DNA from: Bacteroidia bacterium
GTDB taxonomy: Bacteria; Bacteroidota; Bacteroidia; UBA8524
Direction of reading: 5' to 3'
Assembly (NCBI GenBank): GCA_037968475.1
Contig: JBBKVO010000018.1
Location: 108,603 to 172,602 of the forward strand
Length of the DNA stretch: 64,000 bases
Shown: positions 16,017 through 52,328 of the stretch, piece by piece
How positions within the stretch are numbered: the stretch's first letter is position 1
Layout of the letters: each line of letters begins with the position of its first letter
The notes under the pieces: model-generated
Database searches by the model: none
Seen by the model: only the letters and a program-made list of their open reading frames with translations
Told to the model about the DNA's origin: nothing
Made by a program: the position numbers and the translations under genes

Positions 16017-16021
16017 CACAA

Positions 16022-16046
16022 AAGGGGGCTATTAGCCCCCTTTCAC
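16022..16046. terminator. Bidirectional hairpin terminator
   Basis: AAGGGGGCTATTAGCCCCCTT lies between convergent genes. Confidence 0.5.
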
Positions 16047-16067
16047 GTTTATTCTTCATACAAACAA

Positions 16068-16673: not shown

Positions 16674-16867
16674 TGTTAAAAATTTGCTACAAATATAGGT
16701 GTATTGCTTTTTTTAAAAACCTGTAAATGCAATATGTACCTGCAAACTAAACAAAATCAGTACAAATAGCCCATAAATACAAGGCCACAATACTATACAC
16801 CCATACTATTTCCGTTTATAAAGATAGACTGGCTTTTATTACTTTTGCCATGGCTTATTGTATACAC

Positions 16868-17113
16868 ATGACAAACGAGGAAATAAAAGAAAAAACAAAC
16901 TCCATTTTTCATAAAGTTTTTAGCGACGAGAGTATAGGAATACACCCTGAAATGACTGCAAAGGATGTGGAGCGTTGGGACTCGCTAAACCATCTCACCC
17001 TTATAACATCGGTAGAAGAAGCCTTTGGGATAAAATTTAAGCTGAAAGAACTAATAAGTATGAAAAACGTAGGTGATTTACTTCGCTTAATAGAAGCCAA
17101 AACAAACGGCTAA
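16868..17113 (+). CDS. Acyl/D-alanyl carrier protein-like
   Basis: ~81 aa with a DSL(N) phosphopantetheine-attachment-like motif (WDSLNHLTLI). It is the first gene of a tight operon. Confidence 0.65.
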   Translation: MTNEEIKEKTNSIFHKVFSDESIGIHPEMTAKDVERWDSLNHLTLITSVEEAFGIKFKLKELISMKNVGDLLRLIEAKTNG

Positions 17114-17122
17114 TACAATACC

Positions 17123-18721: not shown

Positions 18722-18742
18722 CGCTACGTTTAACACACAAAT

Positions 18743-20515
18743 TTGAAACTAATAAAAAACATATTACCCCTACTACTGCTATTGGCAGGGCAAATTGCCC
18801 AAGCCCAAAACAGCGGTATGAAAAGTAGTTTGTATAACGATACGTTTGCCGATGAAAGCTATGTATCGCGTTTTGTGCGCTATCAAAAATATTATTCGTT
18901 TATAAAATACGACGAGAACTATTTTGAGTGGGCAGATGTAACAGCTGTTGATAATATATATGCCAAACTGGCTCGCGCCAACAGCAAAAAAGTAAACATA
19001 TTACATATTGGCGACTCGCATATACAAGCCGATTTTTATACAGGTTATGTACGCGAGAATATTCAAAAAGTATTTGGCTATGGCGGTAGGGGCTTTATAT
19101 TTCCCTATGCGTGCGCAGGCACACACTCTACCTACGATTATCGTACTTGGAAATACGGCAACTGGGATGGTGCCCGTAACGTGAAAAATCCTAACCTGAT
19201 GGATATTGGTATTACAGGTGCTGTAGCCCGTACTACCGATGAAAAAGCAGGTTTTAAATTTGGTTTTAAAGAAGGCATACTTATGCCTGAATTTACAACA
19301 CTAAAAATCTATTGTAAAAAAGACAGCCAAAGTTTTAACCTGAAACTGAAACTTGCCAACTACCCCGATACCATATACCTAAACACTAACGCCCGACCCA
19401 ACAGCCCATACATACGTGTTGATTTACCCGTAGTATCTGATACATTTGAAGTATTTGTTGATAAAACCGACAGCACACAAACCTTTTTTGAGTGTTACGG
19501 CCTAATGATAGAAAGCTGCAAAGACAAGGGCGTAACTTATAGCAGTGTGGGTATTAACGGTGCTGGTTTTGGCAATGTTCTAGCCCAAACCTTGTTTGAA
19601 GGGCAGGTACAAGAACTAAAACCTGATTTGGTGGTAATAGATTTGGGTGCCAACGATTTTTATGGTTTTAACTATAACGAATTTGAACTGCGTACCAACC
19701 TAGAGAGTCTTATAAACACTATTAAAAAAGCATCACCTAAAGCATCAATACTTATATCTTGTTCGCAAGATATTTACTATCGTCGCCGTAAAAATGTATA
19801 TGCTACACACCCGTTTTCAAAACTTATACAGACCACCGCAAAAGCTAACGGAGCTATTTGGTACGATTATTTTGCCATATCGGGCGGGCAATATTCTATG
19901 CAAAAGTGGAGGCGTTACCATTTGGCAAAAAATGATAAAGTACACCTTACCACAGCGGGTTATAACCTTAAAGGCGACTTATTTCTAAATGCTTTGTTAA
20001 ACTCGTACTTAGAGTATCTGAAAGGGCGTCCCGAAAGCCTTATAGTAGCTAATGGCGGGCTAAAAAGTAAAAGTGTTATAGATAACCTTTTTAGTGATAA
20101 AAATAGTGTTACCGACCCTGAAAACGACAGCACCAAAACCCAAATAGTGTACAGAGTTAAAAAAGGCGAATACCTTAGCAGCATAGCCAAACGGTATGAT
20201 GTAGATATTGAGGATATTATGGATTGGAACGGGCTGGAAAAAACCTACCTGTACTATGGTCAAAAACTAACCTTATATGTAGATAAAACCGTAGCCACCA
20301 AACCACAGGTTACCGCTACTACACAGACTGAACCTAAAACTACCCCTAAAAAATCCACAACAACCGGTGGTGGGGTAAAATACAAAGTAAAATCAGGCGA
20401 TACACTTTGGGATATTGCAAACCGCAATGGAGTTAGCGTAGCAGAAATTAAAAAACTTAACAACCTGCGCGGAGATGCCATCAGGGCGGGACAAACCTTA
20501 GTTATCAGCAAATAA
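18743..20515 (+). CDS. SGNH/GDSL-like protein with two C-terminal LysM domains
   Basis: Signal peptide and a LHIGDSHIQAD block. Two LysM repeats (YRVKKGEYLSSIAKRYDVDIEDIMDWN..., YKVKSGDTLWDIANRNGVSVAEIKKLNNL...). TTG start as annotated in the track. Confidence 0.55.
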   Translation: MKLIKNILPLLLLLAGQIAQAQNSGMKSSLYNDTFADESYVSRFVRYQKYYSFIKYDENYFEWADVTAVDNIYAKLARANSKKVNILHIGDSHIQADFYTGYVRENIQKVFGYGGRGFIFPYACAGTHSTYDYRTWKYGNWDGARNVKNPNLMDIGITGAVARTTDEKAGFKFGFKEGILMPEFTTLKIYCKKDSQSFNLKLKLANYPDTIYLNTNARPNSPYIRVDLPVVSDTFEVFVDKTDSTQTFFECYGLMIESCKDKGVTYSSVGINGAGFGNVLAQTLFEGQVQELKPDLVVIDLGANDFYGFNYNEFELRTNLESLINTIKKASPKASILISCSQDIYYRRRKNVYATHPFSKLIQTTAKANGAIWYDYFAISGGQYSMQKWRRYHLAKNDKVHLTTAGYNLKGDLFLNALLNSYLEYLKGRPESLIVANGGLKSKSVIDNLFSDKNSVTDPENDSTKTQIVYRVKKGEYLSSIAKRYDVDIEDIMDWNGLEKTYLYYGQKLTLYVDKTVATKPQVTATTQTEPKTTPKKSTTTGGGVKYKVKSGDTLWDIANRNGVSVAEIKKLNNLRGDAIRAGQTLVISK

Positions 20516-20518
20516 TAC

Positions 20519-22003
20519 ATGGATTTTTCTGGCTTTTTGCAGCAGTTTGCCTACAACCCTATAAAAATACTTCAGTTCAATTCGGTCTTCTTTTTTGGCC
20601 TATTCTCCATATTCTATGTGCTGTATGCTGCTTTCTTCAATCGCATACAAGTTCGCAATGGTTTACTACTACTCTTTAGCCTGTTTATCTATTACAAACT
20701 AAGCGGTTTGTATATAGTGCTAATGTGCCTAGTAGCACTCAGCGATTTTTTAATAGGTAAGCAAATACTAAAAACACAAAACGAAGGAAAAAAGAAATGG
20801 TGGCTGCTGCTATCCCTTATTATTAGTGTGGGTTCGCTTATTTATTTTAAATACACCCCGTTTATATTAGAAAATGTAAACACACTTTTAGGTTCAAACT
20901 TTACCCCACCCACAGGCTTTTTAATGCCTATTGGTATATCTTTTTACATATTCAAAACCATCAGCTATGTAATGGATTGCTATAACGAGATGATTGAAGA
21001 GCCTGAAAAAAATTACTTCGATTATCTATTATACTTATCACTATTTACCACACTAATAGCAGGCCCCATAGTTCGTGCCCGCGACGTATTGCCCCAACTA
21101 AAACAAAAACTTGTAGTAAGTAAGGAGTTTATGGGACAAGGCTTTTATTTAATACTGATTGGAGCTGTAAAAAAATACCTAATTGCCGATTTTTTGTGGG
21201 TCAACTTTATCGAGCGTGTGTTTACCTCGCCCACAATATTTTCTGGCTTCGATAATCTGATGGCCATGCTAATGGGCACCATACAGTTTTATTACGATTT
21301 TGCAGGATACACTGATATGATGCTGGGCATATCGCTACTACTAGGGTTACAATTGCAGGGTAATTTTAACCGTCCGTTTATGGCACAAAACATTAGCGAT
21401 TTTTGGCGCAGGTGGCACATAACCCTATCTACTTGGCTAAACGAGTACGTGTTTATGCCCATGTCGTTCGCGTGGCGTAGCGGTGGCAAGGCGGGAGTGG
21501 TTTTTGCCAGTTTATTCACCTTTGTAATATCGGGAATTTGGCATGGACCAAAATATACGTACATACTTTGGGGCACACTTCACGGTGCAGCAATAGCATG
21601 GGATGTTGCCAGCCAAAACTGGCGTTTTAAGCTAAAAAAGAAGATAAACAGTACTTTGTACAAGGTAGTAAGCATAATCATCACCTTTGCCTTTATAAGC
21701 CTTACTATGGTGATTTTTAATGTGAAGCAATTGCCAATGGCTTGGGATATGTACGAAATGATATTTGCCAAAATGAATTGGGCATTAGCGCCTGAGTGGT
21801 TTAGCATATACTACAAAGAGTTTATCATTTTTGCATTGGCTGCCTTAGTACATTTTTTACCGTTAAAAATTAAAACATACTCAATGCAGCAATACACACT
21901 ATTGCCTTGGCCGCTAAAATCGATAGTAGGTTTGGTGGTTATTATATTTATATACCAGTTCTTCTCAGCAGAAACACAGCCTTTTATTTACTTGCAGTTT
22001 TAG
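20519..22003 (+). CDS. MBOAT-family membrane O-acyltransferase (DltB/AlgI/PatA-like)
   Basis: Multi-TM protein with an FYIFKTISYVMDCY motif and a conserved His (RRWHITLSTWLNEY). Confidence 0.85.
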   Translation: MDFSGFLQQFAYNPIKILQFNSVFFFGLFSIFYVLYAAFFNRIQVRNGLLLLFSLFIYYKLSGLYIVLMCLVALSDFLIGKQILKTQNEGKKKWWLLLSLIISVGSLIYFKYTPFILENVNTLLGSNFTPPTGFLMPIGISFYIFKTISYVMDCYNEMIEEPEKNYFDYLLYLSLFTTLIAGPIVRARDVLPQLKQKLVVSKEFMGQGFYLILIGAVKKYLIADFLWVNFIERVFTSPTIFSGFDNLMAMLMGTIQFYYDFAGYTDMMLGISLLLGLQLQGNFNRPFMAQNISDFWRRWHITLSTWLNEYVFMPMSFAWRSGGKAGVVFASLFTFVISGIWHGPKYTYILWGTLHGAAIAWDVASQNWRFKLKKKINSTLYKVVSIIITFAFISLTMVIFNVKQLPMAWDMYEMIFAKMNWALAPEWFSIYYKEFIIFALAALVHFLPLKIKTYSMQQYTLLPWPLKSIVGLVVIIFIYQFFSAETQPFIYLQF

Positions 22004-29175: not shown

Positions 29176-30366
29176 TTGGCAAACCGTATTATAACCCGCC
29201 GTGTATGGATGCTTTCGCTTATCAGCTTGTTTACTGATATGGCCAGCGAAATGCTATACCCTGTTATGCCCCTTTATCTTAAAAGCATTGGTTTTACCAT
29301 GGTTTTTATTGGTTTTTTGGAAGGCGCAGCAGAGTTTACGGCAGGTGTGAGTAAAGGGTATTTTGGCCAACTATCAGACAAATGGCAAAAACGTGTGCCG
29401 TTTATCCGTTGGGGATATACACTTAGTGCAGCTGCAAAACCTATGGTAGTGCTGTTTCGCAATCCTTTTTGGGTATTGTTTATGCGTGTTGGCGACCGCT
29501 TGGGTAAAGGGCTACGCACGGGTGCTCGCGATGCTCTTTTGGCAGATGAATGCACGCCTCAAAATCGGGGGCGTGTTTTTGGCTTGCACAGAGGCATGGA
29601 TACATTGGGTGCAACTTTGGGGGCATTATCTGCATTTTTAATCCTAACCGTTCAGCCCCAAGATTTTGAGAATGTATTTGTATGGGCTATCGTGCCTGGT
29701 ATTGTAGCTATTTTTCTTAGTTTTTTGCTGACAGAAAGCAAACGCAACAACGATTTTATCGCATCAAAAGAAAAGGTAGGATTTCTCTCGTACTTTAAAT
29801 ATTGGAAAACGGCCACCCCACAATACAGAAAACTAACAGGAGGCATAATTCTGTTTTATTTATTTAATACCTCAGACGTGTTTTTATTATTGTTTTTAAA
29901 ACATCAGGGATTTAGCGCAACGTTTATTATTGGCGCATATATACTTTACAATGCCTTTTATGCGCTGCTTTCATATCCTTTTGGGCATTTATCAGATAAA
30001 ATAGGCTACCAAAAAGTATATATGTTGGGCTTATTGTGTTTTGTAATTACGTATGCACTGCTGCCCTTCTCTACCCAATATTGGCAGGTGATAGTACTTT
30101 TTTCTATTTACGGAGCATTTTCAGCATTAACCGACGGTATTAGCAAAGCATGGATGAGCCAGCATTGCAAGCCCAATGAAAAAGGTACTGCTTATGGTTT
30201 TTTGGGGAGTAGTATTAGCATAGCTCTTGTCATCTCTAATACCCTAATAGGTTTTATTTGGGATGGCTTTACACCCGCCTACGCTCTTTTACTTTCAGCA
30301 GTGGGAGCACTGGCCTGCTTTGTCTATTTTTTGAGGTGGAAAGAAACTACACCCTTACCTAAATAA
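29176..30366 (+). CDS. MFS transporter
   Basis: 12-TM pattern with an MFS signature loop (GDRLGKGLR). Confidence 0.8.
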   Translation: MANRIITRRVWMLSLISLFTDMASEMLYPVMPLYLKSIGFTMVFIGFLEGAAEFTAGVSKGYFGQLSDKWQKRVPFIRWGYTLSAAAKPMVVLFRNPFWVLFMRVGDRLGKGLRTGARDALLADECTPQNRGRVFGLHRGMDTLGATLGALSAFLILTVQPQDFENVFVWAIVPGIVAIFLSFLLTESKRNNDFIASKEKVGFLSYFKYWKTATPQYRKLTGGIILFYLFNTSDVFLLLFLKHQGFSATFIIGAYILYNAFYALLSYPFGHLSDKIGYQKVYMLGLLCFVITYALLPFSTQYWQVIVLFSIYGAFSALTDGISKAWMSQHCKPNEKGTAYGFLGSSISIALVISNTLIGFIWDGFTPAYALLLSAVGALACFVYFLRWKETTPLPK

Positions 30367-33300
30367 TAATACCGTGCCTCTGTAATGGCTTCGGCGGTAA
30401 AAATAATCCATAATACTTATCTCGTAAACATATACTCCTTCAGGGGCAAACGCACCTCTATAATTACCGTCCCACTTATGTAATACCGAGTTTGACTCGA
30501 ACATTTTTTCACCCCAACGATTATAAATACGCATCTGGTACTCCCGTATCCCCTTAAAAATACCCTCAGCACCAAAAGTTGGGTTTAAGTCGCCTTCATC
30601 AGGAGTGAAAGCCGTAGGAATAAACAATGTATAATCAGGTGAGATAAAAATACGTTTCTGTGCGCTGTCAAAACACCAATTTTGGTTTCTCACCACCAAG
30701 TCTACCCAATACCTGCCTGTATCGTTATACTCATATACAAGATTTTGTGCATTAGAAGTACTTCCGTCTCCCATTCGCCAATCCCATGCCACTACATCAG
30801 TACTAGAAGCATCGGTAAAGGTAATTTGTGCCGTAAAAAACGATACCGAATCAGGCTTGGCGGTGAAATCAGCAACAGGTAGCTGGTACACGGTTATGAA
30901 ATTAGTAAAAGTAGAATCGTGTCTACACCCTTTATCCGTAAGTATTGTTAAAATGGGCGAATATGTGCCCCATTTGGTGTATGTATGTGTAGGGTTTTGC
31001 AAGGTATCTGAATACTTATCGCCAAACTGCCACGACCATTTGGTGATAGTGGTTTGAGGCACTTTGCTCTGGTCGGTAAATACTACTTCAAAAGGCTGGC
31101 ATCCATCAGGAGTAGGTGTAAAAATTTCTGCCTGAGGCAAAGGGTTTACACTTACAGTATTTTTTACGTTACCTATACACCCTTTATCACTGGTAACTAT
31201 TAACTCAACATTATAATCGCCCCAATTGTTATAGGCATGGGTAGGTCTTTTACCACTGCCTGTATAGCCGTCGTCAAAAATCCATTGGTAGCTTGTTGTG
31301 CTGCCACTACTTAGGGTTACATTGTCTGTAAACTGTGTTGTATCAAGTAGGCACACTTCGGTTGCAGTAAAGGCTGCTTTAGGTTCAGGGTGAATGGTAA
31401 TCTTTTTTATAGCAGTGTCTTTACAACCAAACTGCGACGCTACAATAAGTTGTATGTTTTTGTTTCCCTCAACAAAATAGATATTACTAATTACTTTTCC
31501 TGTATCGGTTTTGCCACTCAAATCCCAATCACGACTAACAATTGATCCAACATTTACTGTTGAAGAATCAGTAAATGTAGCAGGTAGTTTCACGCATTGG
31601 TCATTAAAATAAAAGTTAGCCTTGGGACGTGGATATATAGTAATGGTTTTTTGTGCACTATCTACACAATGCCCGCTAACTTCAACTTTTAGCTTTACTA
31701 AGTAGCTGCCTAGTACACTGTATTTGTGTTTGGGGGCTATGGAAGTGTCTGTATACCCATCACCCAATTGCCAAAACCTTGCCGTAGTAGTACCGTTTGA
31801 GAATGTACTATAATCAGAGAAAACTGCGGTATCGTACACACAAACATCGTTTATATCAAATTTCACATTGGGCATATCAAATGCTTCAATGGTTTTGCCT
31901 GCTGTATCGCTACACCCCTTATCGCTAATGGTTATCAATTGTGTTTGGTAAGTACCTGCTATACTATAGTTTTTTGGAGGTTTAGTAGTATTTAATGCCC
32001 CCGAACCATCTCCAAACGACCACAAACGTTTATCTATATACCCTTCATCAATGGTACTTCCATCTATAAATATTGCAGTATCTATATAGCAAATATCTCC
32101 AATGGCATAGGCTGCTTTGGGGTTTGAGTACACATCAACCACAGTGGTTTGGGTATCGGTACAGCCAAAATTGTTTTCTACCCAAAGCAGTATAGTATGA
32201 AGGCCTGTATCAACAGGTAACCATTTTTGAACTTGATTGGTATCAATAAAATATACGCCCTCCCACCATTGACGTTGCACCAAAGTATCGGTTGTGGGTT
32301 GCGTTAAATCAGTTAGTACAACCGTATCACCCTTGCAAACATTTGCAGTTTGTACTTTTGCCAAAGGGCGTGGGTATATTACAATAGCATTGCTAGTATC
32401 GTTCTTACACCCCATATCTGATATGGCTGTGTGCTTAACTACAAAAGTATCGGCGTATGGGTACAGGTATTTTGCGTGTTGTAAGCTATCGGTTTGCCCA
32501 TCACCATACTCCCATAAATATTTAAGTATTTGGGTGCTGTCAATTGAGCTCGTATCTGTAAAAGTAGCACTATCGGCATAGCATACATTAGCCAATGTAA
32601 AGCCTACTTTTGGCACAGGAAACACGGGCACTTGCTTAGTTACGGTGTCTACACAGCCGTGATTGGTAGTAGCTATCAGTTTAACTATGAAGTTGTACGC
32701 ACTATCGTAGTGTTTTATCGGGTTCTTGCTTGTACTAATGCTTCCATCGCCAAATTCCCACCGCCATTTGTTTATTGTTGAAGTTGTGCCTTCTATCACA
32801 CTACTATCAATAAATTTAATGGTATCGTTTTGGCAAAAATGCGGGACTAAAAACCTTGCCTCAAGTTGTTGGCGAACGGTAATAGTTGTTGTGCTAGAAT
32901 CTTGCGATTCGCAATCGTTTTGGTTATTGTTTATAGTTACTAAAGCCAAATTAAACGTACCCAAAGTATCGAAGGTTATTACCGGCCTAGCACTGTCTGA
33001 GTAAAAAGTATCGGCCAAATACCATCGGTATTCATCAGGTGTATAGTTGGTGTTGGGTATAAAAGTAGTGGGCACCCCTTTGCAAACCGCAGCAGTAGAA
33101 GTACTTATATAATGGGTAAGATTGCGAATGTTTGCCCCCGCTGCATAGCCATACGATTCTACATTTCCAAACCCATACGCCAAAGCATTAAAACCACTAT
33201 CGGCAGTTAAACTGTGGTTGCCTGCGGCAACAGTAGTTTGCGAGTACATATAGGTGGGATTTGAAGATACAAAAGACCATTGCACACTATTGTTATCCAA

Positions 33301-34428
33301 TCTAAACGTACCCGTATCGGCACGTTTCATCACAATATTAATATGATGATTAGTAATATTTTGATAGGGTGATGAGTACAAGGTAATCTCGTTGAGTTGT
33401 TGCTCAATTGGGCTTAAAATAGTCATCGAAGGGTCGCCTGTAATACCATCACAATTTTGAGTACGCTGAAATTGAGCCATTTTTGCAGGTTTGGTGCAGC
33501 GTACATAATTTGCTGTTGAACTTAAAAACTCGTGGTATTGCCCTTTTTGTAGATTTTTTTGAAAGGTATTATTTACATACACCTGTGTATTATCCGCTCC
33601 TGCCAATACCCTAAAATAATCACCGCCTGTGCGGGTTTTCATTGGTACGGTAATAAACTCTTTTCCCCACGCACTTACAGGGTACATTTGTTGGTATAGA
33701 TTATCTCCACTACCTGCACCTGTGCAGCCTAATACCGTAAACGAACTACCCGAAAATACAGAAATACGTTTGCACCCACCACTACCACTTGAAACTGAAA
33801 GAAGTCTTGAACCTGTAATATCAGAAGTAGAACGATACTGATATGCCTCGCCTTTATTAAGACTTATAGTAAAAGTGGTGTTTGCTTGCCTAAAGCCTGT
33901 TGTATTGTTTGCAGTAGGGGTAATTTCTACCAAAGTACTATCTTCAGTGGCTAATACCATGAACTGATTGCGATGGGCACTACCAGTTGAAGCCTGAGTA
34001 AAACTCATAGCATAATATTCTCTACCCAATGTAGCTGTGGGTAGTACTAAGGTAGCATCAGAACGTGCATTGGCGTGTATGTGTGAGTATACCACCACGG
34101 GATCGTTTGCAATAAGTTTAATCCCTTTGTTTTCTATACAATCATCGCACCCCACATAAGCTGAGGCGGGGGGTATATTTAATACGGTTACTGAGTTTGC
34201 CGATACACTAAAGTTTTGCGACCAACTTTGCCCCGGAATGCTTACTACACCTGAAGTAGATACATCAGAAGTAACATATAATTTCATATTTGATCCCGTA
34301 CCGTCTATATGTCCCATATAGCCAATCCAAAAATCAGTACCCTTGTTTGATGTTACTTGTGAAAAAGCACTAAATGATAGTAGCAATACAATTGCACTAA
34401 GCACTAGCCCTATATGTCTACCTCTCAT
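30355..34428 (-). CDS. Large PKD-repeat adhesin with a T9SS type-B (gliding motility-associated) C-terminal domain
   Basis: 1357 aa. Many PKD-like repeats (WEFGDGS...S...NP.H.Y). The C-terminal ~90 aa (YTLFIPTAFTPDEGDLNPTF...EGVYVYEISIMDYF...GTVLLFR) fit the type-B sorting domain. Its 3' end overlaps the MFS gene by 12 nt. Confidence 0.8.
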   Translation of the reverse strand: MRGRHIGLVLSAIVLLLSFSAFSQVTSNKGTDFWIGYMGHIDGTGSNMKLYVTSDVSTSGVVSIPGQSWSQNFSVSANSVTVLNIPPASAYVGCDDCIENKGIKLIANDPVVVYSHIHANARSDATLVLPTATLGREYYAMSFTQASTGSAHRNQFMVLATEDSTLVEITPTANNTTGFRQANTTFTISLNKGEAYQYRSTSDITGSRLLSVSSGSGGCKRISVFSGSSFTVLGCTGAGSGDNLYQQMYPVSAWGKEFITVPMKTRTGGDYFRVLAGADNTQVYVNNTFQKNLQKGQYHEFLSSTANYVRCTKPAKMAQFQRTQNCDGITGDPSMTILSPIEQQLNEITLYSSPYQNITNHHINIVMKRADTGTFRLDNNSVQWSFVSSNPTYMYSQTTVAAGNHSLTADSGFNALAYGFGNVESYGYAAGANIRNLTHYISTSTAAVCKGVPTTFIPNTNYTPDEYRWYLADTFYSDSARPVITFDTLGTFNLALVTINNNQNDCESQDSSTTTITVRQQLEARFLVPHFCQNDTIKFIDSSVIEGTTSTINKWRWEFGDGSISTSKNPIKHYDSAYNFIVKLIATTNHGCVDTVTKQVPVFPVPKVGFTLANVCYADSATFTDTSSIDSTQILKYLWEYGDGQTDSLQHAKYLYPYADTFVVKHTAISDMGCKNDTSNAIVIYPRPLAKVQTANVCKGDTVVLTDLTQPTTDTLVQRQWWEGVYFIDTNQVQKWLPVDTGLHTILLWVENNFGCTDTQTTVVDVYSNPKAAYAIGDICYIDTAIFIDGSTIDEGYIDKRLWSFGDGSGALNTTKPPKNYSIAGTYQTQLITISDKGCSDTAGKTIEAFDMPNVKFDINDVCVYDTAVFSDYSTFSNGTTTARFWQLGDGYTDTSIAPKHKYSVLGSYLVKLKVEVSGHCVDSAQKTITIYPRPKANFYFNDQCVKLPATFTDSSTVNVGSIVSRDWDLSGKTDTGKVISNIYFVEGNKNIQLIVASQFGCKDTAIKKITIHPEPKAAFTATEVCLLDTTQFTDNVTLSSGSTTSYQWIFDDGYTGSGKRPTHAYNNWGDYNVELIVTSDKGCIGNVKNTVSVNPLPQAEIFTPTPDGCQPFEVVFTDQSKVPQTTITKWSWQFGDKYSDTLQNPTHTYTKWGTYSPILTILTDKGCRHDSTFTNFITVYQLPVADFTAKPDSVSFFTAQITFTDASSTDVVAWDWRMGDGSTSNAQNLVYEYNDTGRYWVDLVVRNQNWCFDSAQKRIFISPDYTLFIPTAFTPDEGDLNPTFGAEGIFKGIREYQMRIYNRWGEKMFESNSVLHKWDGNYRGAFAPEGVYVYEISIMDYFYRRSHYRGTVLLFR

Positions 34429-44629: not shown

Positions 44630-46390
44630 ATGAAAAAACTACTACTAACAGCAGTTGTGCTGGTTGCAGGTATTGCAGCGCATGCACAGTATTTCCAAAA
44701 TCTTTACGGCGTTCCCGTAAATGAAACTCTAACATCAGGTATCAATACTACAGCTTCGGGAAACGGCTATTTTATGGCTAGTTCTAACAGCGGCTTTGCT
44801 TTTGGTACTCCTTCAATTTCAGCTGCATTTGCAGACGTTACAGGTAATATACCCGGTGGCCCTTACTTTACTAACGAGTACATGGTAGTAAGCAATGCAG
44901 GTAATCCATTACAAACCCAAGACCCACAGGTATTTGAGTTTGACAACGGTTCTGGCTTTGGTATTATAGGCAGGTATACCGACCCTACAATGGCTAGCCC
45001 AAACACTGGAATTTATTTTCTTCAATTAGACCCTTCGGGAAATGTACTAAATTCTTTTAACTATACTGTTAACCCTAATGGCAGTAGCTTTTGGGATGTT
45101 ATAAAAGTGAGTGCTATTGCCGAATCGGCCACTGGTAAAGAAATATACGTTACAGGCTGGTTACAACCCAATTTTGCACAAGTAAACAGCTTTGTATTAA
45201 AAATTGACGCTGCCTCTGGAGCAATAATTTGGGGTTATGTATACGATGTTATCAACCCTAGCTTCTCGTCAAAAGATTTGTTTAACGACATTGTAGAAAG
45301 CCCTTATTCTAGTGAAGTTATTGTTGTGGGTCAAACTTATGATGGCACTACAACTTCTGATGGCTTGTTTATGCGTATTAATTCAAATACAGGAGCTGCT
45401 TTTCCTATCGTAAACCTTCACGGAACAGCAACCTCATGGGATGCTTTTAATGCTATAACCGTAGCTAACAGCCCTGCCGCTGGTGGCCCTGGTTTTGCAA
45501 TTGGTGGTACAAGCGATGCTAACGGTACTAATGATTTTTGGTTTACTTTAGTTGATCCTACAGGTACTTTTATCACTTCAACCCTACACGATTATAGTAT
45601 AAACCCAGGCGCCAACGATATTTGCGAAGATATAATTGAGCGCAAAAACACATTTGGCAAATATGAATACTACATGGCTGGCAGCACCTTTAAAGGAGCA
45701 TTTGGCAAGTACGATGTATTAGTAATAAAAACTGATGCTAAGGGTAATGGTGTTGCCAATGGAGAATTTACTTATGGTAGCGCAGGTAACGATTTTGGTA
45801 AAAGCATTGACCAATATAACGGTACAGGTAATGATGGCCTAAGCATATTTGGCACTTATGATGATAATGTTATAGGCGGTTCTGATATGTACTTGGTAAG
45901 AGCTTATTTTAATGGCGCATCAGGTTGTAACGAAAAATTTAGCACACCAACCCCAAAAAGTGGCCCTAAACTATACTTACGCTATGATGTAAAAGATATA
46001 GCCAAGTTTAAAGACAACAAATTCTTATGGAAACAAACTACTGCCAAAGACAAAAATCTTTGCTTTGCTTGGACAATAACAGGTGGCAGTAACGCCCGTG
46101 TAGCTCCAGCCGAACCTAGCGGAGATAAAGAAGCAAAAGTCAGCCCTAACCCAATTGCACAAGGCACACAATATGCCGCCCTTGAAGTTGAAGTAGAAAA
46201 CCCGACCACAGCACAAGTGGCTATTTATGATATGCTTGGCCGTACCTACTATGCTCAAACCTTTACATTAGTAAAAGGTAAAAACAACATAGTGCTTGAT
46301 ATTAACAACGTTAATATGGCACAAGGTATGTATACTGTTAAAGTACAAGGTGAAAACCTAAACCAAAACATTATATGGTTAGTAAAATAG
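44630..46390 (+). CDS. T9SS type-A C-terminal-domain secreted protein, paralog 1 of 4
   Basis: Signal peptide ending ...AHAQYFQNLYG. Conserved C-terminal block GGSNARVAPAEP.GDKEAKVSPNPIAQG... plus a sorting-domain tail. Confidence 0.7.
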   Translation: MKKLLLTAVVLVAGIAAHAQYFQNLYGVPVNETLTSGINTTASGNGYFMASSNSGFAFGTPSISAAFADVTGNIPGGPYFTNEYMVVSNAGNPLQTQDPQVFEFDNGSGFGIIGRYTDPTMASPNTGIYFLQLDPSGNVLNSFNYTVNPNGSSFWDVIKVSAIAESATGKEIYVTGWLQPNFAQVNSFVLKIDAASGAIIWGYVYDVINPSFSSKDLFNDIVESPYSSEVIVVGQTYDGTTTSDGLFMRINSNTGAAFPIVNLHGTATSWDAFNAITVANSPAAGGPGFAIGGTSDANGTNDFWFTLVDPTGTFITSTLHDYSINPGANDICEDIIERKNTFGKYEYYMAGSTFKGAFGKYDVLVIKTDAKGNGVANGEFTYGSAGNDFGKSIDQYNGTGNDGLSIFGTYDDNVIGGSDMYLVRAYFNGASGCNEKFSTPTPKSGPKLYLRYDVKDIAKFKDNKFLWKQTTAKDKNLCFAWTITGGSNARVAPAEPSGDKEAKVSPNPIAQGTQYAALEVEVENPTTAQVAIYDMLGRTYYAQTFTLVKGKNNIVLDINNVNMAQGMYTVKVQGENLNQNIIWLVK

Positions 46391-46416
46391 TTTAGATAAA
46401 ACACTAAATTAATTTA

Positions 46417-46447
46417 AAGCTACCCCTTTTGGGGTAGCTTTTTTTTT
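46417..46447 (+). terminator. Rho-independent terminator (module copy 1)
   Basis: AAAGCTACCCC-TTTT-GGGGTAGCTTT followed by a T-run. Confidence 0.7.
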
Positions 46448-46466
46448 GTAAAACCAAAAAGGGTAG

Positions 46467-46517
46467 TTCACAAAGTCAAAAGGGTAGTTCACAAATTCAA
46501 AATGGTATTTCACAAAG
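46467..46517 (+). promoter_or_regulatory. Three TTCACAAA(G/T) direct repeats phased at 21 bp
   Basis: Repeats start at 46467, 46488 and 46508/9. They are upstream of the conserved CAAATTGTATACACA promoter-proximal block. Confidence 0.5.
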
Positions 46518-46582
46518 TGAACATGTTTTAACAAATAGTATTTGTGCAAATTGTATACACAAATTTTAAAACACTATCTATT

Positions 46583-48340
46583 ATGAAAAACATTATTCTA
46601 ATTGTCTTTTTACTAGCCGGTTTCACTAGCAAGGCTCAGTATTTCCAACATCTTTACGGTCAAGACCCCGCTATTGGCAGCTTAATAGGAAATGGCATGA
46701 ACACCAAAGCAACAGGGCCCGGACATTTAATAGGGGGTTTACATATAAAAGATTTATTAATACCCCCCGGTCCGTATGATTTTTACAACTTTGCTCTGCA
46801 TGTTATTAGAACCGATGCTGACGGCAGGTTTGCTTCTCCAAACGATTTTAATAATACTTATAGGCTAACTAACTCAGCTGGTGCTGCTATCCGTTTCTCA
46901 GCAGGTTCTGTTGTCGAGTTTAGTGATGGCAGTGGCTATGGTGCTATAGGTACTTATTTTTACGAGCCTCTGCCTCGCTCGTTTGGTATTGCCTACATCC
47001 GCTTAGATGTACTCGGTAATGTAATTAGTTCACAAGGCTACGCTTTACCTTATAGGGGCGGTAGCTATATTGATTTGAGGGGAATGAAAGAATCAGTATC
47101 AAACCCCGGCGATCTATTTGCTACAGGCACATCTGCAAATTCAAATGGTGATGAGTATATGTGGGCACTTAAAATTGACCAAACCGGCACTCTTTTATGG
47201 GGGAATTTATATGATTTTGGATTAGGTATTATTGAAGATCCAGCTGATTTAATTGAAAGCCCTTATGCCTCAGAACTTATTGTTGTAGGAGGGGTGAAAT
47301 CATCGTTAAGAGCCTTATGGATGGTTTTAGACCCTAACACAGGCAGTGTGATTTCAGCCGATGAGATGTCGTCTTTTTACGGTACAACTGAGATTTTAAA
47401 CTCCATTGATGTAAGTGATGACCCTTTAATGCCCGGTTTTATACTTTCAGGTGTAGTGGATGAAAAGGTATGGGTAGTAAAAACCGACCAAATGGGCACT
47501 TACCAATGGGGAGGAATATATCAACCCTCATTTAGTCAAGTAGAATATATGTATGGTTTTGATGCCGTTGGTCGCCTAAAAGAAGATGGCTCTGATGGCT
47601 ATAATTATGAATACTTTATTACTGGAGCGATATATGTTACATCTGCACCAAACCCTGATGCTTTTGTTTTTAAACTAGACCGTTGGGGCAACCCCGTCAA
47701 CCCAAATGCATTATTTATTTATAACTATGGTATTGAAGAAACAGGATTGGATGTAGATGTAAATATAAGTGGCAGTGGCGATGGTGTTACTATGTATGGT
47801 ATTGGTGAAGATAACAATATCCCTACCAAAGAAATATATGTTGTTAAGGCCTATTTTAATGGTGTTTCTGGTTGCAATGAGCGGTTTGAAGATTTACAAC
47901 AAAATGTAGGAGAACTTTTTCCTGTTAATTCGTTAGGCGTTGCATTAACTCCACTAAGCACAGAAATTCTTACATTATACAATATCGAGAATGAATTAGA
48001 TAAAGAGATTTGCTATAACACTACAATACCCAGTGGTAGCAATGCACGCGTAGCTCCTGCTGAACCTAAAGGTGATAAAGAAGCAAAAATTAGCCCTAAC
48101 CCTATTGCACAAGGCGTTCAATATGCTAATATAGACGTTGATATTGAACAACCTACAACTGCACAAGTATCGGTTTACGATATGCTAGGCCGTACCTACT
48201 ACTCGCAAACATTTACTTTGGTAAAAGGCAAAAACAACCTAGTGCTTGATATTAGTAATATTAACATGGCACAAGGTATGTATACTGTGAAAATACAAGG
48301 TGATAACCTAAACCAAAATATAGCATTACTTGTAAAATAA
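46583..48340 (+). CDS. T9SS type-A C-terminal-domain secreted protein, paralog 2 (start chosen at MKNIILIVF)
   Basis: The ORF-track start at 46544 lies inside the conserved promoter block. A signal peptide begins at 46583. The C-terminal ~100 aa are ~90% identical to the other paralogs. Confidence 0.7.
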   Translation: MKNIILIVFLLAGFTSKAQYFQHLYGQDPAIGSLIGNGMNTKATGPGHLIGGLHIKDLLIPPGPYDFYNFALHVIRTDADGRFASPNDFNNTYRLTNSAGAAIRFSAGSVVEFSDGSGYGAIGTYFYEPLPRSFGIAYIRLDVLGNVISSQGYALPYRGGSYIDLRGMKESVSNPGDLFATGTSANSNGDEYMWALKIDQTGTLLWGNLYDFGLGIIEDPADLIESPYASELIVVGGVKSSLRALWMVLDPNTGSVISADEMSSFYGTTEILNSIDVSDDPLMPGFILSGVVDEKVWVVKTDQMGTYQWGGIYQPSFSQVEYMYGFDAVGRLKEDGSDGYNYEYFITGAIYVTSAPNPDAFVFKLDRWGNPVNPNALFIYNYGIEETGLDVDVNISGSGDGVTMYGIGEDNNIPTKEIYVVKAYFNGVSGCNERFEDLQQNVGELFPVNSLGVALTPLSTEILTLYNIENELDKEICYNTTIPSGSNARVAPAEPKGDKEAKISPNPIAQGVQYANIDVDIEQPTTAQVSVYDMLGRTYYSQTFTLVKGKNNLVLDISNINMAQGMYTVKIQGDNLNQNIALLVK

Positions 48341-48372
48341 AATAGTATTTATAATCATCATATCTGTTTTAT

Positions 48373-48406
48373 AAAAGCTACCTCAAAAGGGTAGCTTTTT
48401 TTTCAC
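48373..48406 (+). terminator. Rho-independent terminator (module copy 2)
   Basis: AAAGCTACC-TCAAAA-GGGTAGCTTT followed by a T-run. Confidence 0.7.
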
Positions 48407-48473
48407 AAACCCAAAATAGTGTTTCACAAAACAGAAACTGCATTTCACAAAGTCAAATGCCCATTTCACAAAG
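48401..48473 (+). promoter_or_regulatory. Four TTTCACAAA(C/A/G) direct repeats at exactly 21-bp spacing
   Basis: Repeats start at 48401, 48422, 48443 and 48464. Confidence 0.55.
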
Positions 48474-48537
48474 TAATCACACTGTTGCAGTTAATATTCT
48501 ACAAATTGTATGTACTAATATTAAAATACTATCTACA

Positions 48538-50292
48538 ATGAAAAAAATCTTTTTAATCACCTTAGCCTTTGCTTCTATTGGTGCAAGTGCTCAATTCTTT
48601 CAACACAACTATGGCACTAAAGACAGTGAGAATGCAAGCAATGGGTTAAACACCACTGCAACAGGGTTGGGACATTTTATTGTCTCAAGTACTTTTAATT
48701 CTCCAACAAATGAAATTTTAGCGGTTAATACCGATATTAATGGAAATGTTGCCGCCTTTAATAATTTATATACTTTAACTCATTCATCTGGAGTATTGCT
48801 AGATATTGACAATACTTTACCTATCGAATTTAGTAACGGAAGCGGTTATGGTATTTTTGGCAGATTTCACGACCCAGGTCTTAGCATACCTACAGGTATT
48901 TTTTACCTTGAAATTGATCCCGCAGGAAACATTTTAAATGTTACTGAATACAATCCTATTAGCACTGTCGGCACAAATTATTATGTAGTAGAAGTTGCTG
49001 ATGTAACCGAATCATTAGGTGGTGGTTTCTTTTATATTACGGGGACTGTTGACCCCAGTATTATGGGTAACTTTTGGATTTTTGTTATAAAAATTGACCA
49101 AGCAGGAAATATAATATGGTCTATTGTAGACGACCTAGTAAACTCAACATCGGTATCACGTGATTGGGCAAAAGGGATTGTCGAAAGTCCGTATTCTCCT
49201 TCGGGTACTCCTGAATTGGTGGTTGTAGGACAAACCTATGATGGAGGAGGTTCAGCAGATGCATTTCTCGTAAGGCTTGATGCCAATAGCGGAACATCAC
49301 TAGCACCTGTAAATTTATATGGCACTACTACCAGTAATGAGATTTTTAATTCTATTAAGATAGCAAACAACACTATATCAGGTGCGCCCGGCTTTATTAT
49401 TGGCGGTAGTAGTGATATAAATAGTGGTGGTGCAAATCGTGATTTTTGGCTACTTCAAACAGATGACCAAGGTAATCCATTTTGGAGCTACACTTATGAT
49501 TATAATGGTAGTTCAGGCAATAACGATTACAGTACAGATGTAATTGAAAGGCTTAATACTGGGGGATTATATGAATACTATCTTGGCGGGCATACCAATA
49601 ATGGAAACCTTGGTGGTGCCGATTTGGTAGTTATAAAAACTGATAATTTAGGTAATGCCGTTGGTCAATTTACTTATGGTAGCCCTTCTGATGATGTTGG
49701 CACTTATCTTGACTATTACGACCTCGTGGGGCCTGATGGCTTAAGCGTTTTTGGTACATACAATGGAGGTGGTATAGGTTTAATGGATACATACCATGTA
49801 AAAGCTTATTTTAATGGTTTATCTGGTTGTAATGAAAATCTTGGTATGACCCATAATTTAATAGGCCCCGGCCTATTTATGAACTTACAGGATAGATTAA
49901 AAACAACATTTAAAAATGTTTCTATGACATCCGCCCTATCTAGTGCGAAAGATGCTAACCTTTGTTTCAACTTCTCTATACCCGGTGGTAGCAATGCACG
50001 CGTTGCTCCTGCTGAACCCAAAGGAGATAAAGAAGCAAAAATTAGCCCTAACCCAATTGCTCAAGGTGTACAATATGCCAATGTAGAAATTGATATTGAA
50101 AAACCTACAACCGCCCAAGTATCGGTGTACGATATGCTTGGTCGTAGCTACTATGCACAAACCTTTACTTTGGTAAAAGGCAAAAACAACCTAGTGCTTG
50201 ATATTAGTAATATTAACATGGCACAAGGTATGTATACTGTGAAAATACAAGGTGAAAACCTTAACCAAAACATAGCATTACTTGTGAAATAG
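48538..50292 (+). CDS. T9SS type-A C-terminal-domain secreted protein, paralog 3 (start at MKKIFLITLAF)
   Basis: The signal peptide starts at 48538. The ORF-track 5' extension covers the promoter region. Confidence 0.7.
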   Translation: MKKIFLITLAFASIGASAQFFQHNYGTKDSENASNGLNTTATGLGHFIVSSTFNSPTNEILAVNTDINGNVAAFNNLYTLTHSSGVLLDIDNTLPIEFSNGSGYGIFGRFHDPGLSIPTGIFYLEIDPAGNILNVTEYNPISTVGTNYYVVEVADVTESLGGGFFYITGTVDPSIMGNFWIFVIKIDQAGNIIWSIVDDLVNSTSVSRDWAKGIVESPYSPSGTPELVVVGQTYDGGGSADAFLVRLDANSGTSLAPVNLYGTTTSNEIFNSIKIANNTISGAPGFIIGGSSDINSGGANRDFWLLQTDDQGNPFWSYTYDYNGSSGNNDYSTDVIERLNTGGLYEYYLGGHTNNGNLGGADLVVIKTDNLGNAVGQFTYGSPSDDVGTYLDYYDLVGPDGLSVFGTYNGGGIGLMDTYHVKAYFNGLSGCNENLGMTHNLIGPGLFMNLQDRLKTTFKNVSMTSALSSAKDANLCFNFSIPGGSNARVAPAEPKGDKEAKISPNPIAQGVQYANVEIDIEKPTTAQVSVYDMLGRSYYAQTFTLVKGKNNLVLDISNINMAQGMYTVKIQGENLNQNIALLVK

Positions 50293-50324
50293 TATTTGTG
50301 CTGATAAATATTCATCACTTTATA

Positions 50325-50350
50325 AAAGCTACCTCAAAAGGGTAGCTTTT
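50325..50350 (+). terminator. Rho-independent terminator (module copy 3)
   Basis: AAAAGCTACC-TCAAAA-GGGTAGCTTTT. Confidence 0.65.
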
Positions 50351-50351
50351 A

Positions 50352-50408
50352 TTTTACAAACCCAAAACAGTATTTCACAAAACAGAAAGCTTATTTCACA
50401 AAGTGAAG
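50352..50408 (+). promoter_or_regulatory. Three TTT(C/T)ACAAA repeats at 21-bp spacing
   Basis: Repeats start at 50352 (degenerate), 50373 and 50394. Confidence 0.5.
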
Positions 50409-50467
50409 TCTTTTTTCCCCATTCCATTTATTCAAATTGTATACACATATTTTAAAAAACTATCATT

Positions 50468-52234
50468 ATGAAAAAACTATTTCTAATTGTATTTGCATTA
50501 ACCTCAATTGGAGCCAATGCACAGTATTTCCAACATCTGTATGGAAGCGTTGACGAAGAGCGCGATATATCAGGAGTGAACACCTTTATACAGCCACAGG
50601 GACATCTTATGGCATCAAACAATATTAACAACCAACTAGGTACATCAAACCTTATTGTTACCTACACTGATATAGATGGAAGAATACTAGGAGCACCAAA
50701 CTTTAATAATGAGTATGTGATAACCTCACCTATTTCGGGAAACGCAGTATCAATATCATCGGCCAAAGTATTTGAGCTTGAAAATGGCAGTGGCTTTGGC
50801 GTAGTTGGCTTATACAGAGACAATTTATTACCCCAACCCGGTATTTTTTATTTACAGCTTGACCCTATGGGTAATGCGCTAACTATATACGATTATACAC
50901 CCAACTCGGGTATTATAGCTTGGTATAGCCTATTAAATGTGGGAGCAGTATCAAAATCACCCGGTACTGATGATTTGTACATTACAGGTGGAACAGAATC
51001 TAGCGCCGCAGCAAATTTTTTATACGCTTTAAAAATAAATACTATGACAGGTACTATACTTTGGTCGAGTTTTTATGATATAGTGCAACCAAATTCCCCC
51101 AAAAAAGAATCGGCTGCAGATATTATAGAAAGCCCCTATATGCCATTAGGTCAAACTGAAGTAATAATTGTAGGTAGCGGATATGATGTAACTTCAACTA
51201 GTATTGATGGATTCCTTATCCGCTTAAATGCAAATACGGGGATCCCTATGGTGGGTTGGGCTAACTACTATGGTACCACAGCAACTTCTGAAAAATTTTC
51301 AAGTATCGATATTGCCAGCAGCACCGCAGGTGGCTCAGATGGTTTTATTATTGGCGGAACAGCAGCAGGGGGCGATTTTTGGCTAATAAAAGTTGATCCT
51401 ACGGGCTCAACCATTTGGTCTCACGTATACGATAACAGCTTATTACCGGGTAATAGTGATGAATGCCACGATGTAAAAGAAAGACTTAATACATCAGGTA
51501 ATTATGAGTATTACGCTTGTGGAACAACGGGAAACATTAGCGGAAGCTCTGATATAATGGTAATAAAAACCGATGATTTGGGAAATGGAGTAGCAAACGG
51601 AGAGTTCACCTACAACAGCGGCATAGGTGTGGTTGATATGGGATATGCGCTTGACCAATATAATGGTACTGGAGCTGATGGACTAAGCATTTATGGTATA
51701 TCCTTCAACGGCAGTATTGGTCTAGCCGATCAATATCTTATCAAAGCATACTTTAATGGTAAATCAGGCTGTAACGAATCATTTAGCACTCCTAACGCAC
51801 AACTGGGAGCTGATTGGTATAGCGAAACTACATTGGATTATTTTGACAACTTCTCAGTAAGTACAATGTTATCAACCCAAGGTTCTGTTAGCGATTTTAA
51901 CCTTTGCTATAGGCGCAGAATAATCGGTGGTAGCAATGCACTAGTAGCTCCCGATGAACCTAAAGGTGATAAAGAAGCAAAAGTTAGCCCTAACCCTATT
52001 GCACAAGGCACACAATATGCGGCTCTTGAAGTTGAGATTGAGCAGCCTACAACCGCCCAAGTATCAGTGTACGATATGCTTGGCCGTAGCTACTATGCAC
52101 AAACCTTTACATTAGTAAAAGGCAAAAACAACTTAATGCTTGATATTAGCAATATCAATATGGCACAAGGAATGTATACAGTGAAAATACAAGGAGAAAA
52201 CCTTAATAAAAATATAGTACTGCTGGTAAAATAA
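50468..52234 (+). CDS. T9SS type-A C-terminal-domain secreted protein, paralog 4
   Basis: Same architecture and conserved C-terminal block as paralogs 1-3. Confidence 0.7.
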   Translation: MKKLFLIVFALTSIGANAQYFQHLYGSVDEERDISGVNTFIQPQGHLMASNNINNQLGTSNLIVTYTDIDGRILGAPNFNNEYVITSPISGNAVSISSAKVFELENGSGFGVVGLYRDNLLPQPGIFYLQLDPMGNALTIYDYTPNSGIIAWYSLLNVGAVSKSPGTDDLYITGGTESSAAANFLYALKINTMTGTILWSSFYDIVQPNSPKKESAADIIESPYMPLGQTEVIIVGSGYDVTSTSIDGFLIRLNANTGIPMVGWANYYGTTATSEKFSSIDIASSTAGGSDGFIIGGTAAGGDFWLIKVDPTGSTIWSHVYDNSLLPGNSDECHDVKERLNTSGNYEYYACGTTGNISGSSDIMVIKTDDLGNGVANGEFTYNSGIGVVDMGYALDQYNGTGADGLSIYGISFNGSIGLADQYLIKAYFNGKSGCNESFSTPNAQLGADWYSETTLDYFDNFSVSTMLSTQGSVSDFNLCYRRRIIGGSNALVAPDEPKGDKEAKVSPNPIAQGTQYAALEVEIEQPTTAQVSVYDMLGRSYYAQTFTLVKGKNNLMLDISNINMAQGMYTVKIQGENLNKNIVLLVK

Positions 52235-52265: not shown

Positions 52266-52295
52266 ATGTATGCTGAAAAGGGGGCTTTTGTCCCC
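52266..52295. terminator. Hairpin terminator between convergent genes
   Basis: AAAAGGGGGC-TTTTG-TCCCCTTTTT. Confidence 0.5.
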
Positions 52296-52328
52296 TTTTT
52301 CTTTTATCTCAATTGTTGATTAATCCAA

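Follow-up and report, generated by a model that had tools for sequence, protein, structure and literature searches.

In Helicobacter pylori, the paralogous genes babA/babB and homA/homB resemble one another within a strain at their 3' ends and between strains in their 5' and middle parts (Pride & Blaser 2002, as summarized in PMC3960876), with gene conversion between paralogs as the accepted cause (PMC3960876). In Porphyromonas gingivalis, the rgpA, kgp and hagA genes, which encode cargo of the type IX secretion system (T9SS), share adhesin and C-terminal modules and undergo domain rearrangement and allelic exchange (PMC5266723). Here, we describe a related arrangement in a 64,000-nt stretch (hereafter, the window) of contig JBBKVO010000018.1 from the Bacteroidia bacterium assembly GCA_037968475.1, where a tandem array of four consecutive plus-strand T9SS cargo genes (44630-52234) combines distinct gene bodies with similar 3' ends. 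These ends and the noncoding DNA that follows them have probably been exchanged by recombination between gene junctions.

As in the bab/hom genes, the 5' and middle parts of the array genes group by gene and the 3' parts by genome, and copy number and locus occupancy vary. In contrast, bab/hom genes occupy dispersed loci and encode outer-membrane beta-barrel adhesins whose 3' end specifies the membrane barrel, whereas the present genes lie in tandem, the part that appears to be exchanged is a cleavable T9SS sorting domain plus noncoding terminator and box DNA, phase-variable repeats have left no sign, and exchange seems to be slow and to proceed at the species level. The rgpA/kgp/hagA genes resemble the array in being T9SS cargo of a member of the Bacteroidota, with recombining modules that include a conserved C-terminal domain (CTD) and with homologous recombination or conversion invoked to explain them. 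They differ in being dispersed genes for proteases and adhesins that recombine over large adhesin domains, with no tandem array in which exchange is confined to junctions. Because literature searches returned no paper combining T9SS with concerted evolution, this specific case is apparently undescribed, although the phenomenon itself is well known.

Divergence of gene bodies and tails within the array

The array comprises gene A (g1, 44630..46390, 586 aa), gene B (g2, 46583..48340), gene C (g3, 48538..50292) and gene D (g4, 50468..52234, 588 aa), all on the plus strand and all with intact frames; in comparisons between loci, the prefix W_ denotes a window gene, L1_ a gene of locus L001 and L3_ a gene of locus L003. 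The original prediction for this DNA, made from the letters alone, listed open reading frames (ORFs) of 586, 598, 611 and 588 aa, and these lengths are exact. The ORF of B opens at a GTG at 46544 and that of C at 48457, and the ATGs that align with the other signal peptides are internal (46583 and 48538), giving proteins of 585 and 584 aa, respectively. The protein encoded by C is identical to database protein P0009 and that of D to P0006, both on one NCBI contig. Exact-sequence queries with the A protein and with P0006 returned no record.

Each gene was divided into a tail, consisting of the linker and the CTD (the last 101 codons plus the stop), and a body (the rest of the gene). Protein identity between paralogs is 39-52% overall and 29-44% when bodies only are compared, in agreement with the loose similarity first noted for the middle parts. 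The tails are 81-93% identical as protein and 80-91% as DNA, so that the figure of about 90% originally given for the last ~100 codons is accurate for B and C only. In 30-codon sliding windows, DNA identity is not flat along the genes, moving from 0.27-0.73 in the bodies to 0.72-0.97 in the tails at alignment column ~511, just 5' of GGSNARVAP; the step is sharp and is located at the linker.

Synonymous sites show the same contrast. Estimated by the Nei-Gojobori method (NG86), synonymous divergence (dS) between paralogous bodies runs from 2.0 to infinity, i.e., to saturation, and is not equaled by that of the tails (0.36-1.02), in which the ratio of nonsynonymous to synonymous divergence (dN/dS) is 0.08-0.12. 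At such values the 3' ends, described at first as near-identical, are homogenized only in part. The closest tails are those of B (48035..48340) and C (49987..50292), with a dS of 0.36; the tail of D (51929..52234) stands at 0.65-0.66 from both, and that of A (46085..46390, with the step at GSNARVAP) at 0.95-1.02 from the rest (body dS of at least 2). An 81-mer is exactly shared by B and C (at 48220 and 50172), and their longest perfect run reaches 92 nt (48212-48303 = 50164-50255); the last 126 nt nevertheless contain five differing positions, so that the identity proposed for the final ~120 nt was slightly overstated. In a Sawyer-type permutation of 117 variable tail sites (nine tails, 36 pairs), the 92-nt run corresponds to 33 consecutive matching variable sites (p = 0.0012 uncorrected, ~0.04 corrected for 36 pairs) and is not a chance match.

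Tails follow the array, bodies follow the orthogroup

Related loci were searched for with a 13-sequence alignment, and all of the genomes compared are metagenome-assembled genomes (MAGs) or metagenome contigs. Neighbor-joining trees with 200 bootstraps were built for bodies and tails separately. The bodies form, at 100% bootstrap in each case, the orthogroups {W.3, L003.3, L004.1, L005.1}, {W.4, L001.2, L004.3, L005.3, L006.1}, {L003.2, L004.5, L005.5} and {W.2, L016.1}, where W.2, W.3 and W.4 are genes B, C and D. In the tail tree, all nine tails of the window, L001 and L003 unite at 98%, and those of L004 and L005 at 62-78%.

Pairwise dS values show how far the two parts of a gene can disagree. 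The orthologs W_C and L3_C have a body dS of 0.48 and a tail dS of 1.03, whereas the tail of W_C differs by only 0.36 from that of its neighbor W_B, to which its body is 31% identical. The same holds inside L003, where the neighbors L3_C and L3_E have bodies 33% identical and a tail dS of 0.39. Among the remaining orthologous pairs, W_A/L3_A also shows a more diverged tail (0.94) than body (0.60), W_D/L1_D shows the reverse (body 1.50, tail 0.66), and W_A/L1_A is collinear (body 0.50, tail 0.52). At third codon positions, identity among the CTDs of the window is 0.61-0.78, compared with only 0.33-0.49 between these CTDs and the tails of the body-orthologs in L004. For family members of similar body identity within single genomes, tails of the same array are 70-82% identical and tails from different loci 41-52%.

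Between orthologous bodies, dN/dS is close to 0.07 for A and for D and close to 0.14 for C, and the bodies are ancient orthogroups under purifying selection. The contrast between body and tail is one of tail homogenization and not of fast body evolution. The designation of this family as diversifying, which had been part of the original prediction, does not stand: the orthologous bodies are constrained (dN/dS 0.07-0.14), the orthogroups are conserved across lineages, and a search of the array for phase-variable repeats found only A7, T8-9 (in the terminators) and C6 runs and no longer simple repeats. Silent donor cassettes are likewise not seen in the array, where every one of the four genes is full-length and has a promoter region and a terminator of its own.

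Gene content at the syntenic locus

Copy number, to which the prediction had drawn attention, varies among related genomes. Between a TonB-dependent receptor, a DUF3347 gene and an MGMT-like gene upstream and TerB, MenC and UbiA downstream (flank-gene dS between these genomes, 0.5-1.4), the syntenic locus holds one gene in L030 (A plus a scar), two in L001 (A, D), three in L003 (A, E, C) and four in the window (A, B, C, D). By body identity, the orthologs of A are L001.1 (93%) and L003.1 (91%), those of C are L003.3 (86%) and L004.1 (67%, the first gene of the five-gene arrays L004/L005), and those of D are L001.2 (82%) and L004.3/L005.3 (62%, the third gene). Gene B, whose body diverges most, lacks an ortholog at the syntenic loci; its body is 57% identical to the single-copy gene L016.1 and at most 33% identical to anything else compared. 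A foreign origin of B was considered and rejected because its GC content and GC content at third codon positions (GC3) equal those of its neighbors. The gene at the second position in L003 (L003.2, or E) has no ortholog in the window and is 43% identical in its body to the fifth gene of L004/L005.

The single-gene locus L030 keeps a complete junction at 2530-2880: gene A is followed by a terminator, boxes, a promoter block and an ATG with an 18-codon stub, and then directly by the end-of-array terminator. This junction is a deletion scar left by array contraction, and not the product of a tail-to-tail crossover, because the end-of-array terminator directly follows the stub. In a more distant lineage, L026 (10001-13688) joins an A-type body, 69% identical, to a completely different type of tail (only 46% identical in DNA), similar to that of L009.1, and the next gene of L026 has a tail of the window type. 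Two independent short-read contigs, L026 and L027, break off precisely at the start of the second gene's tail repeat, as assemblies typically do at repeats. In L005, the fifth and sixth family genes are separated by a gene of ~4.9 kb (15676-20661), whose product appears to be a large protein that bears propeller-like repeats, a T9SS tail of its own and, in the motif HEATHALGF, a likeness to zinc proteases.

Terminators, boxes and promoter blocks at the junctions

Similarity between the array genes extends past the stop codons. In blastn comparisons, the junction repeat (tail, intergenic region and next signal peptide) at 48026-48605 is 81% identical to that at 49978-50535, and the A>B junction (46076-46659) is 73% identical to the C>D junction (49978-50544). 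The identity is not continuous into the terminator and control region, as had been claimed, since the first ~30-50 nt past the stop are only ~65% identical between junctions; it resumes in the terminator and boxes of the second and third intergenic regions (IG2 and IG3), which are 90% identical over 89 nt (48368-48456 vs 50319-50407). Closer to the start codons, the promoter-proximal blocks are 70-79% identical.

An alignment of six junctions, drawn from the window, L001 and L003, indicates where the exchanged segment ends. Tail, terminator and box array track the upstream gene and its array: W_A>B and L1_A>D are 84-92% identical through the end of the boxes and 56-67% thereafter. The last ~90 nt, containing the core promoter block and the signal peptide, track the downstream gene, with W_B>C and L3_E>C being 98% identical. 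The view that sorting and regulatory ends are homogenized together therefore applies to tail, terminator and boxes, but not to the promoter-proximal part and the signal peptide, which share the downstream gene's own orthology. Two junctions of L003 with tails 72-84% identical reach 90-98% identity over the 50-100 nt past the stop, which indicates a short recent tract in the post-stop and terminator segment.

A strong hairpin followed by a T run lies behind each of the four genes (-14.3 to -19.3 kcal/mol, z from -4.3 to -5.9), all on the plus strand. The hairpin after A (46416..46441; -19.3 kcal/mol, z = -5.3) precedes a T9 run, that after B (48373..48399; -14.3 kcal/mol, z = -4.9) also precedes a T run and falls inside the 89-nt IG2/IG3 block, and that after C (50322..50352) has -16.1 kcal/mol (z = -5.9). 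The end-of-array terminator after D (52275..52300) is unlike the others in sequence and is kept at the array end in L001, L003 and L030. Because a terminator-like hairpin follows each gene, the array would consist of four separate transcription units. The only Rfam match in the array was a Phe_leader hit at chance level over the first terminator (E = 0.44).

On the 3' side of the terminator, each of the three internal junctions carries three or four copies of (G/T)TA-TTTCACAAA-gtcAAAA with an exact 21-bp period. Upstream of B, three (G/T)TTCACAAA boxes (46466..46516, plus strand) start 117, 96 and 75 nt before the ATG; upstream of C, four exact TTTCACAAA boxes (48401..48472, plus strand) start 137, 116, 95 and 74 nt before it; and upstream of D, one TTTTACAAA and two TTTCACAAA boxes (50352..50402, plus strand) start at 116, 95 and 74 nt. 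A box array is not present upstream of A, the first gene. Between the boxes and the genes, a promoter-proximal block with the core ..CAAATTGTATACACAAATTTTAAAACACTATC.. abuts the ATG of B (46542..46582, plus strand) and recurs at 48497-48537 and 50428-50467 with 72-79% identity.

All 7/7 exact copies of TTTCACAAA in the 64-kb window lie in the internal junctions (1.6 expected), and across the 514 kb of sequence examined, phased TTTCACAAA pairs are confined to junctions of these arrays and always point in the direction of the genes. The related loci carry two to four phased copies, at L001 11837-11887, L003 11838-11867 and 13855-13905, L009 11905-11956, the L026 intergenic region 11768-12011, and L030 2607-2636. 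Among nine junctions from six genomes, seven place the start of the promoter-proximal box 74-75 nt before the ATG and the other two place it at 69 or 71 nt; further boxes lie at -96, -117 and -138. Within the box, positions 1-8 hardly vary, whereas the last spacer positions vary freely. Such a phylogenetic footprint marks the box array as a candidate protein-binding, cis-regulatory array, and we infer that B, C and D are transcribed independently but co-regulated, from promoters preceded by phased TTTCACAAA boxes. A metagenome scan for TTTCACAAA-N12-TTTCACAAA returned at least 120 loci; among the matches listed, none encodes a family member, and those with multiple boxes are unrelated tandem repeats.

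Sites of LytTR-type regulators (AgrA/ComE/PlnC) are 9-bp direct repeats with 12-bp spacers. The boxes share with them the 9-bp direct repeats, the 21 bp from start to start, the location upstream of a promoter and the fixed distance to the gene start, but TTTCACAAA is not the LytTR consensus and there are three or four boxes instead of two, so that the likeness is a resemblance only. Direct repeats for AgrA lie upstream of P2/P3 (PMC4227749). A Pfam scan of ten small ORFs of the window revealed no gene for a LytTR or other regulator. With respect to the promoters themselves, a sigma-70 scan yielded fewer sites than shuffled sequence, the model being unsuited to Bacteroidota promoters, and inspection by eye for a TAnnTTTG -7 box gave no convincing example. 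An ACTATC motif lies 2-8 nt upstream of the start codon (window 46572-46582, 48527-48537 and 50458-50467) and is kept family-wide, even in the distant arrays L004, L005, L007 and L008, where the rest of the intergenic sequence is unrelated; a role in the 5'-UTR or in translation initiation is possible.

Predicted structure of the encoded proteins

The shared layout that had been read from the sequence, comprising a signal peptide, a long middle region and a type A sorting tail, is present in all four proteins, together with the motifs AQ(Y/F)FQ.. and GSNA(R/L)VAP.EP.GDKEAK.SPNPIAQG.QYA. TIGR04183, the T9SS type A sorting domain, matches all of them at 31.9-37.4 bits (cut-off 23), and PF18962 is borderline (25.7-28.1 bits vs a cut-off of 27). 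Read directly from the sequence, each has a Sec signal peptide consisting of MKK, a hydrophobic stretch and A-x-A followed by Q; the structure model of the A protein described below has a low-confidence helix at residues 3-13 in this region. Glutamine as the mature N-terminus after A-x-A would fit the "Q-rule" that Bochtler et al. are said to have described for Bacteroidota in 2018. These features are consistent with secretion through T9SS.

No Pfam family was detected in the first ~480 residues of the four proteins, and among the SBBP/DUF5122 propeller-repeat models of Pfam, the sole match was a sub-threshold DUF5122 in C (E = 0.11, 13.3 bits vs a cut-off of 27). An AlphaFold model of the A protein built from a 47-sequence family alignment (mean predicted local distance difference test score, pLDDT, 87.6) nevertheless predicts a 7-bladed beta-propeller body, with 28 strands forming seven four-stranded blades over residues ~20-430. 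The propeller is followed in the model by a small beta-sandwich (435-480), a disordered linker (490-499, pLDDT <50) and the CTD (503-585), predicted as a 7-stranded beta-sandwich (pLDDT ~79-89). Two cysteines of A, C433 and C478 (about 45926-45928 and 46061-46063), are invariant in 47/47 aligned members, have equivalents in B, C and D, and bracket the small beta-sandwich between propeller and linker; because they flank this domain, a C433-C478 disulfide is probable.

The T9SS type A CTD is a beta-sandwich (TIGR04183/PF18962; PMC4804311), and the array CTD conforms to it, with the last ~80 residues matching the model and a predicted 7-stranded beta-sandwich after a disordered linker. The domain itself is ordinary; its homogenization at the DNA level within arrays is the unusual aspect. 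The window also contains another small T9SS cargo gene (2108-2857, plus strand, 249 aa), with a PF18962 match of 44.8 bits. Its CTD is ~19% identical to the array tails, and T9SS recognition therefore needs no such tail sequence. The largest ORF of the window (1357 aa) is at 30355-34428 on the minus strand.

In CylK, an N-terminal Ca-binding domain forms half of the active site. This domain is absent from the array proteins, and the C-terminal seven-bladed beta-propeller of CylK (PDB 7ron/7fh8) has only 14-18% sequence identity to them; an enzymatic inference is not justified. A family sequence-profile search of the PDB found no relative. The body would serve as a secreted or surface-attached binding module. 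The family amounts to 54 clusters among 5.8 billion proteins, all from uncultured Bacteroidia/Bacteroidota MAGs or metagenomes; these ~50 secreted 7-bladed propeller proteins are an uncharacterized family restricted to uncultured Bacteroidia.

Probable recombination between junctions and its alternatives

Taken together, the incongruence of body and tail trees, the greater closeness of neighboring tails (dS 0.36) than of orthologous ones (1.03) and the variation in copy number from 1 to 4 support an exchange of tails by recombination between the junctions of anciently diverged tandem paralogs, which we consider probable and which agrees with the gene conversion or unequal crossing-over originally proposed. 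The exchanged module would be the linker, the type A sorting domain, the terminator and the downstream box array. Direct repeats of ~300-580 bp, ~1.95 kb apart, would undergo homologous recombination, presumably by a RecA-type pathway, in the form of non-reciprocal gene conversion with occasional unequal crossing-over or deletion. Conversion would homogenize tail, terminator and boxes, and unequal crossing-over or deletion would alter copy number and content, so that the same recombination-prone junctions could account for the 1, 2, 3 or 4 genes, in differing sets, at the syntenic locus. Tracts may be confined to the tail since longer ones would erase the specialization of the bodies or run out of homology. 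The outcome would be segmental concerted evolution, in which tails track the array, and bodies, signal peptides and core promoters track the orthogroup.

Several observations weigh against this reading or limit it. Tail dS (0.36-1.0) is comparable to the divergence between genomes (flank dS 0.5-1.4); homogenization is incomplete and old, with no sign of ongoing conversion in the window genome. The run test is significant in one pair only (B/C) and is marginal after correction, and the scar in L030 is not a simple tail-to-tail crossover product. In the L009 array of OZ244977 (OZ244977.1), the two tails are only 38% identical, and the second is 84% identical to a dispersed copy, L011, ~2.9 Mb away. 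The tails of L004 and L005 pair by ortholog (94-100% bootstrap), and exchange is therefore episodic. Small-scale assembly chimerism inside the repeats is possible, all sources being MAGs or metagenome contigs. Finally, intragenomic conversion and recombination with imported DNA are inseparable on these data. Tail homogenization is partial, episodic and set on a slow, species-level timescale.

Imported DNA is central to the strongest of the alternatives, in which cassettes or alleles are replaced by DNA from related strains, the junctions serving as homology arms, so that the grouping of tails by array and the differences in gene content would stem mainly from horizontal transfer and not from intragenomic conversion. 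At position 2 of the locus, the window (B) and L003 (E) have unrelated genes whose bodies are 25% identical; the body closest to B (57%) is in a distant MAG, L016; the body dS of W_D/L1_D (1.50) exceeds most flank dS values; gene order differs (C-A-D-x-E in L004 vs A-B-C-D in the window); and allelic exchange is reported to diversify the T9SS cargo genes of P. gingivalis (PMC5266723). Import alone, however, leaves unexplained why the tails of non-orthologous neighbors are closer than those of orthologs and why two junctions in a single genome share a terminator segment at 98% identity, and B matches its neighbors in GC and GC3. As the leading explanation it therefore appears possible but rather unlikely. 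It is complementary to recombination between junctions of the array, not exclusive of it, and recombination with imported DNA probably contributes.

The low dN/dS of the tails (0.08-0.12) and the functional appearance of boxes and terminator could also suggest that purifying selection on the sorting signal and regulatory DNA acts alone, with vertical divergence and no exchange. We find this very improbable, since the tails also show far lower divergence at synonymous and third-position sites, the tail and body trees are incongruent at 98-100% support, orthologous tails can be more diverged than their bodies (W_C/L3_C, 1.03 vs 0.48), and other T9SS cargo of the same window and genomes have very different CTDs. 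Hardly any more room is left for a scenario in which the genes duplicated in tandem recently and diversifying selection then rapidly changed the bodies, so that similar tails would reflect young age and the layout would be that of surface-protein families with variable middles and conserved ends: the bodies have orthologs in other lineages (62-93% identity, 100% bootstrap), so that the paralogs predate those lineages, orthologous body dN/dS is 0.07-0.14, and paralogous body dS is saturated. An assembly artefact, whereby metagenome assemblers collapsed or chimerized repeats of co-occurring strains, could draw on the MAG or metagenome origin of all sources and on the breaks of short-read contigs L026 and L027 at the start of the tail repeat, but it is most implausible because OZ252261, a closed 3.8-Mb chromosome-level MAG, has the same pattern, which also recurs in at least 8 independent arrays, with all reading frames intact and junction copies differing at 9-27% of positions, easy for assemblers.

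Going beyond recombination between junctions as such, one could imagine that a junction, made up of linker and CTD, terminator, a varying number of boxes in 21-bp phase and then the promoter, is a dedicated, portable homology adaptor for propeller cassettes and, through its number of boxes (2-4) and some regulator, a tunable enhancer. We consider this unlikely and put it forward as speculation. If it were true, whole propeller cassettes could enter, leave or change places in the arrays, both inside a strain and from one strain to another, and the same recombination would change box number and thereby set the expression level of the downstream cassette; an uncultured Bacteroidia lineage would then have a homology-driven cassette system for T9SS cargo.

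Implications

The understanding of concerted evolution and of T9SS is unchanged by these findings. What the array offers is a clean, quantified case in which recombination, if our reading is right, homogenizes a sorting domain together with its terminator and regulatory DNA, and the bodies stay distinct over the long term. It follows for practice that CTD sequences of T9SS cargo are unusable for gene phylogeny or orthology, and that short-read metagenome assemblies break, and may mis-join, at such tails (as in L026 and L027). For the family itself, copy number is strain-variable, and a strongly position-conserved candidate cis-regulatory array accompanies these propeller genes.

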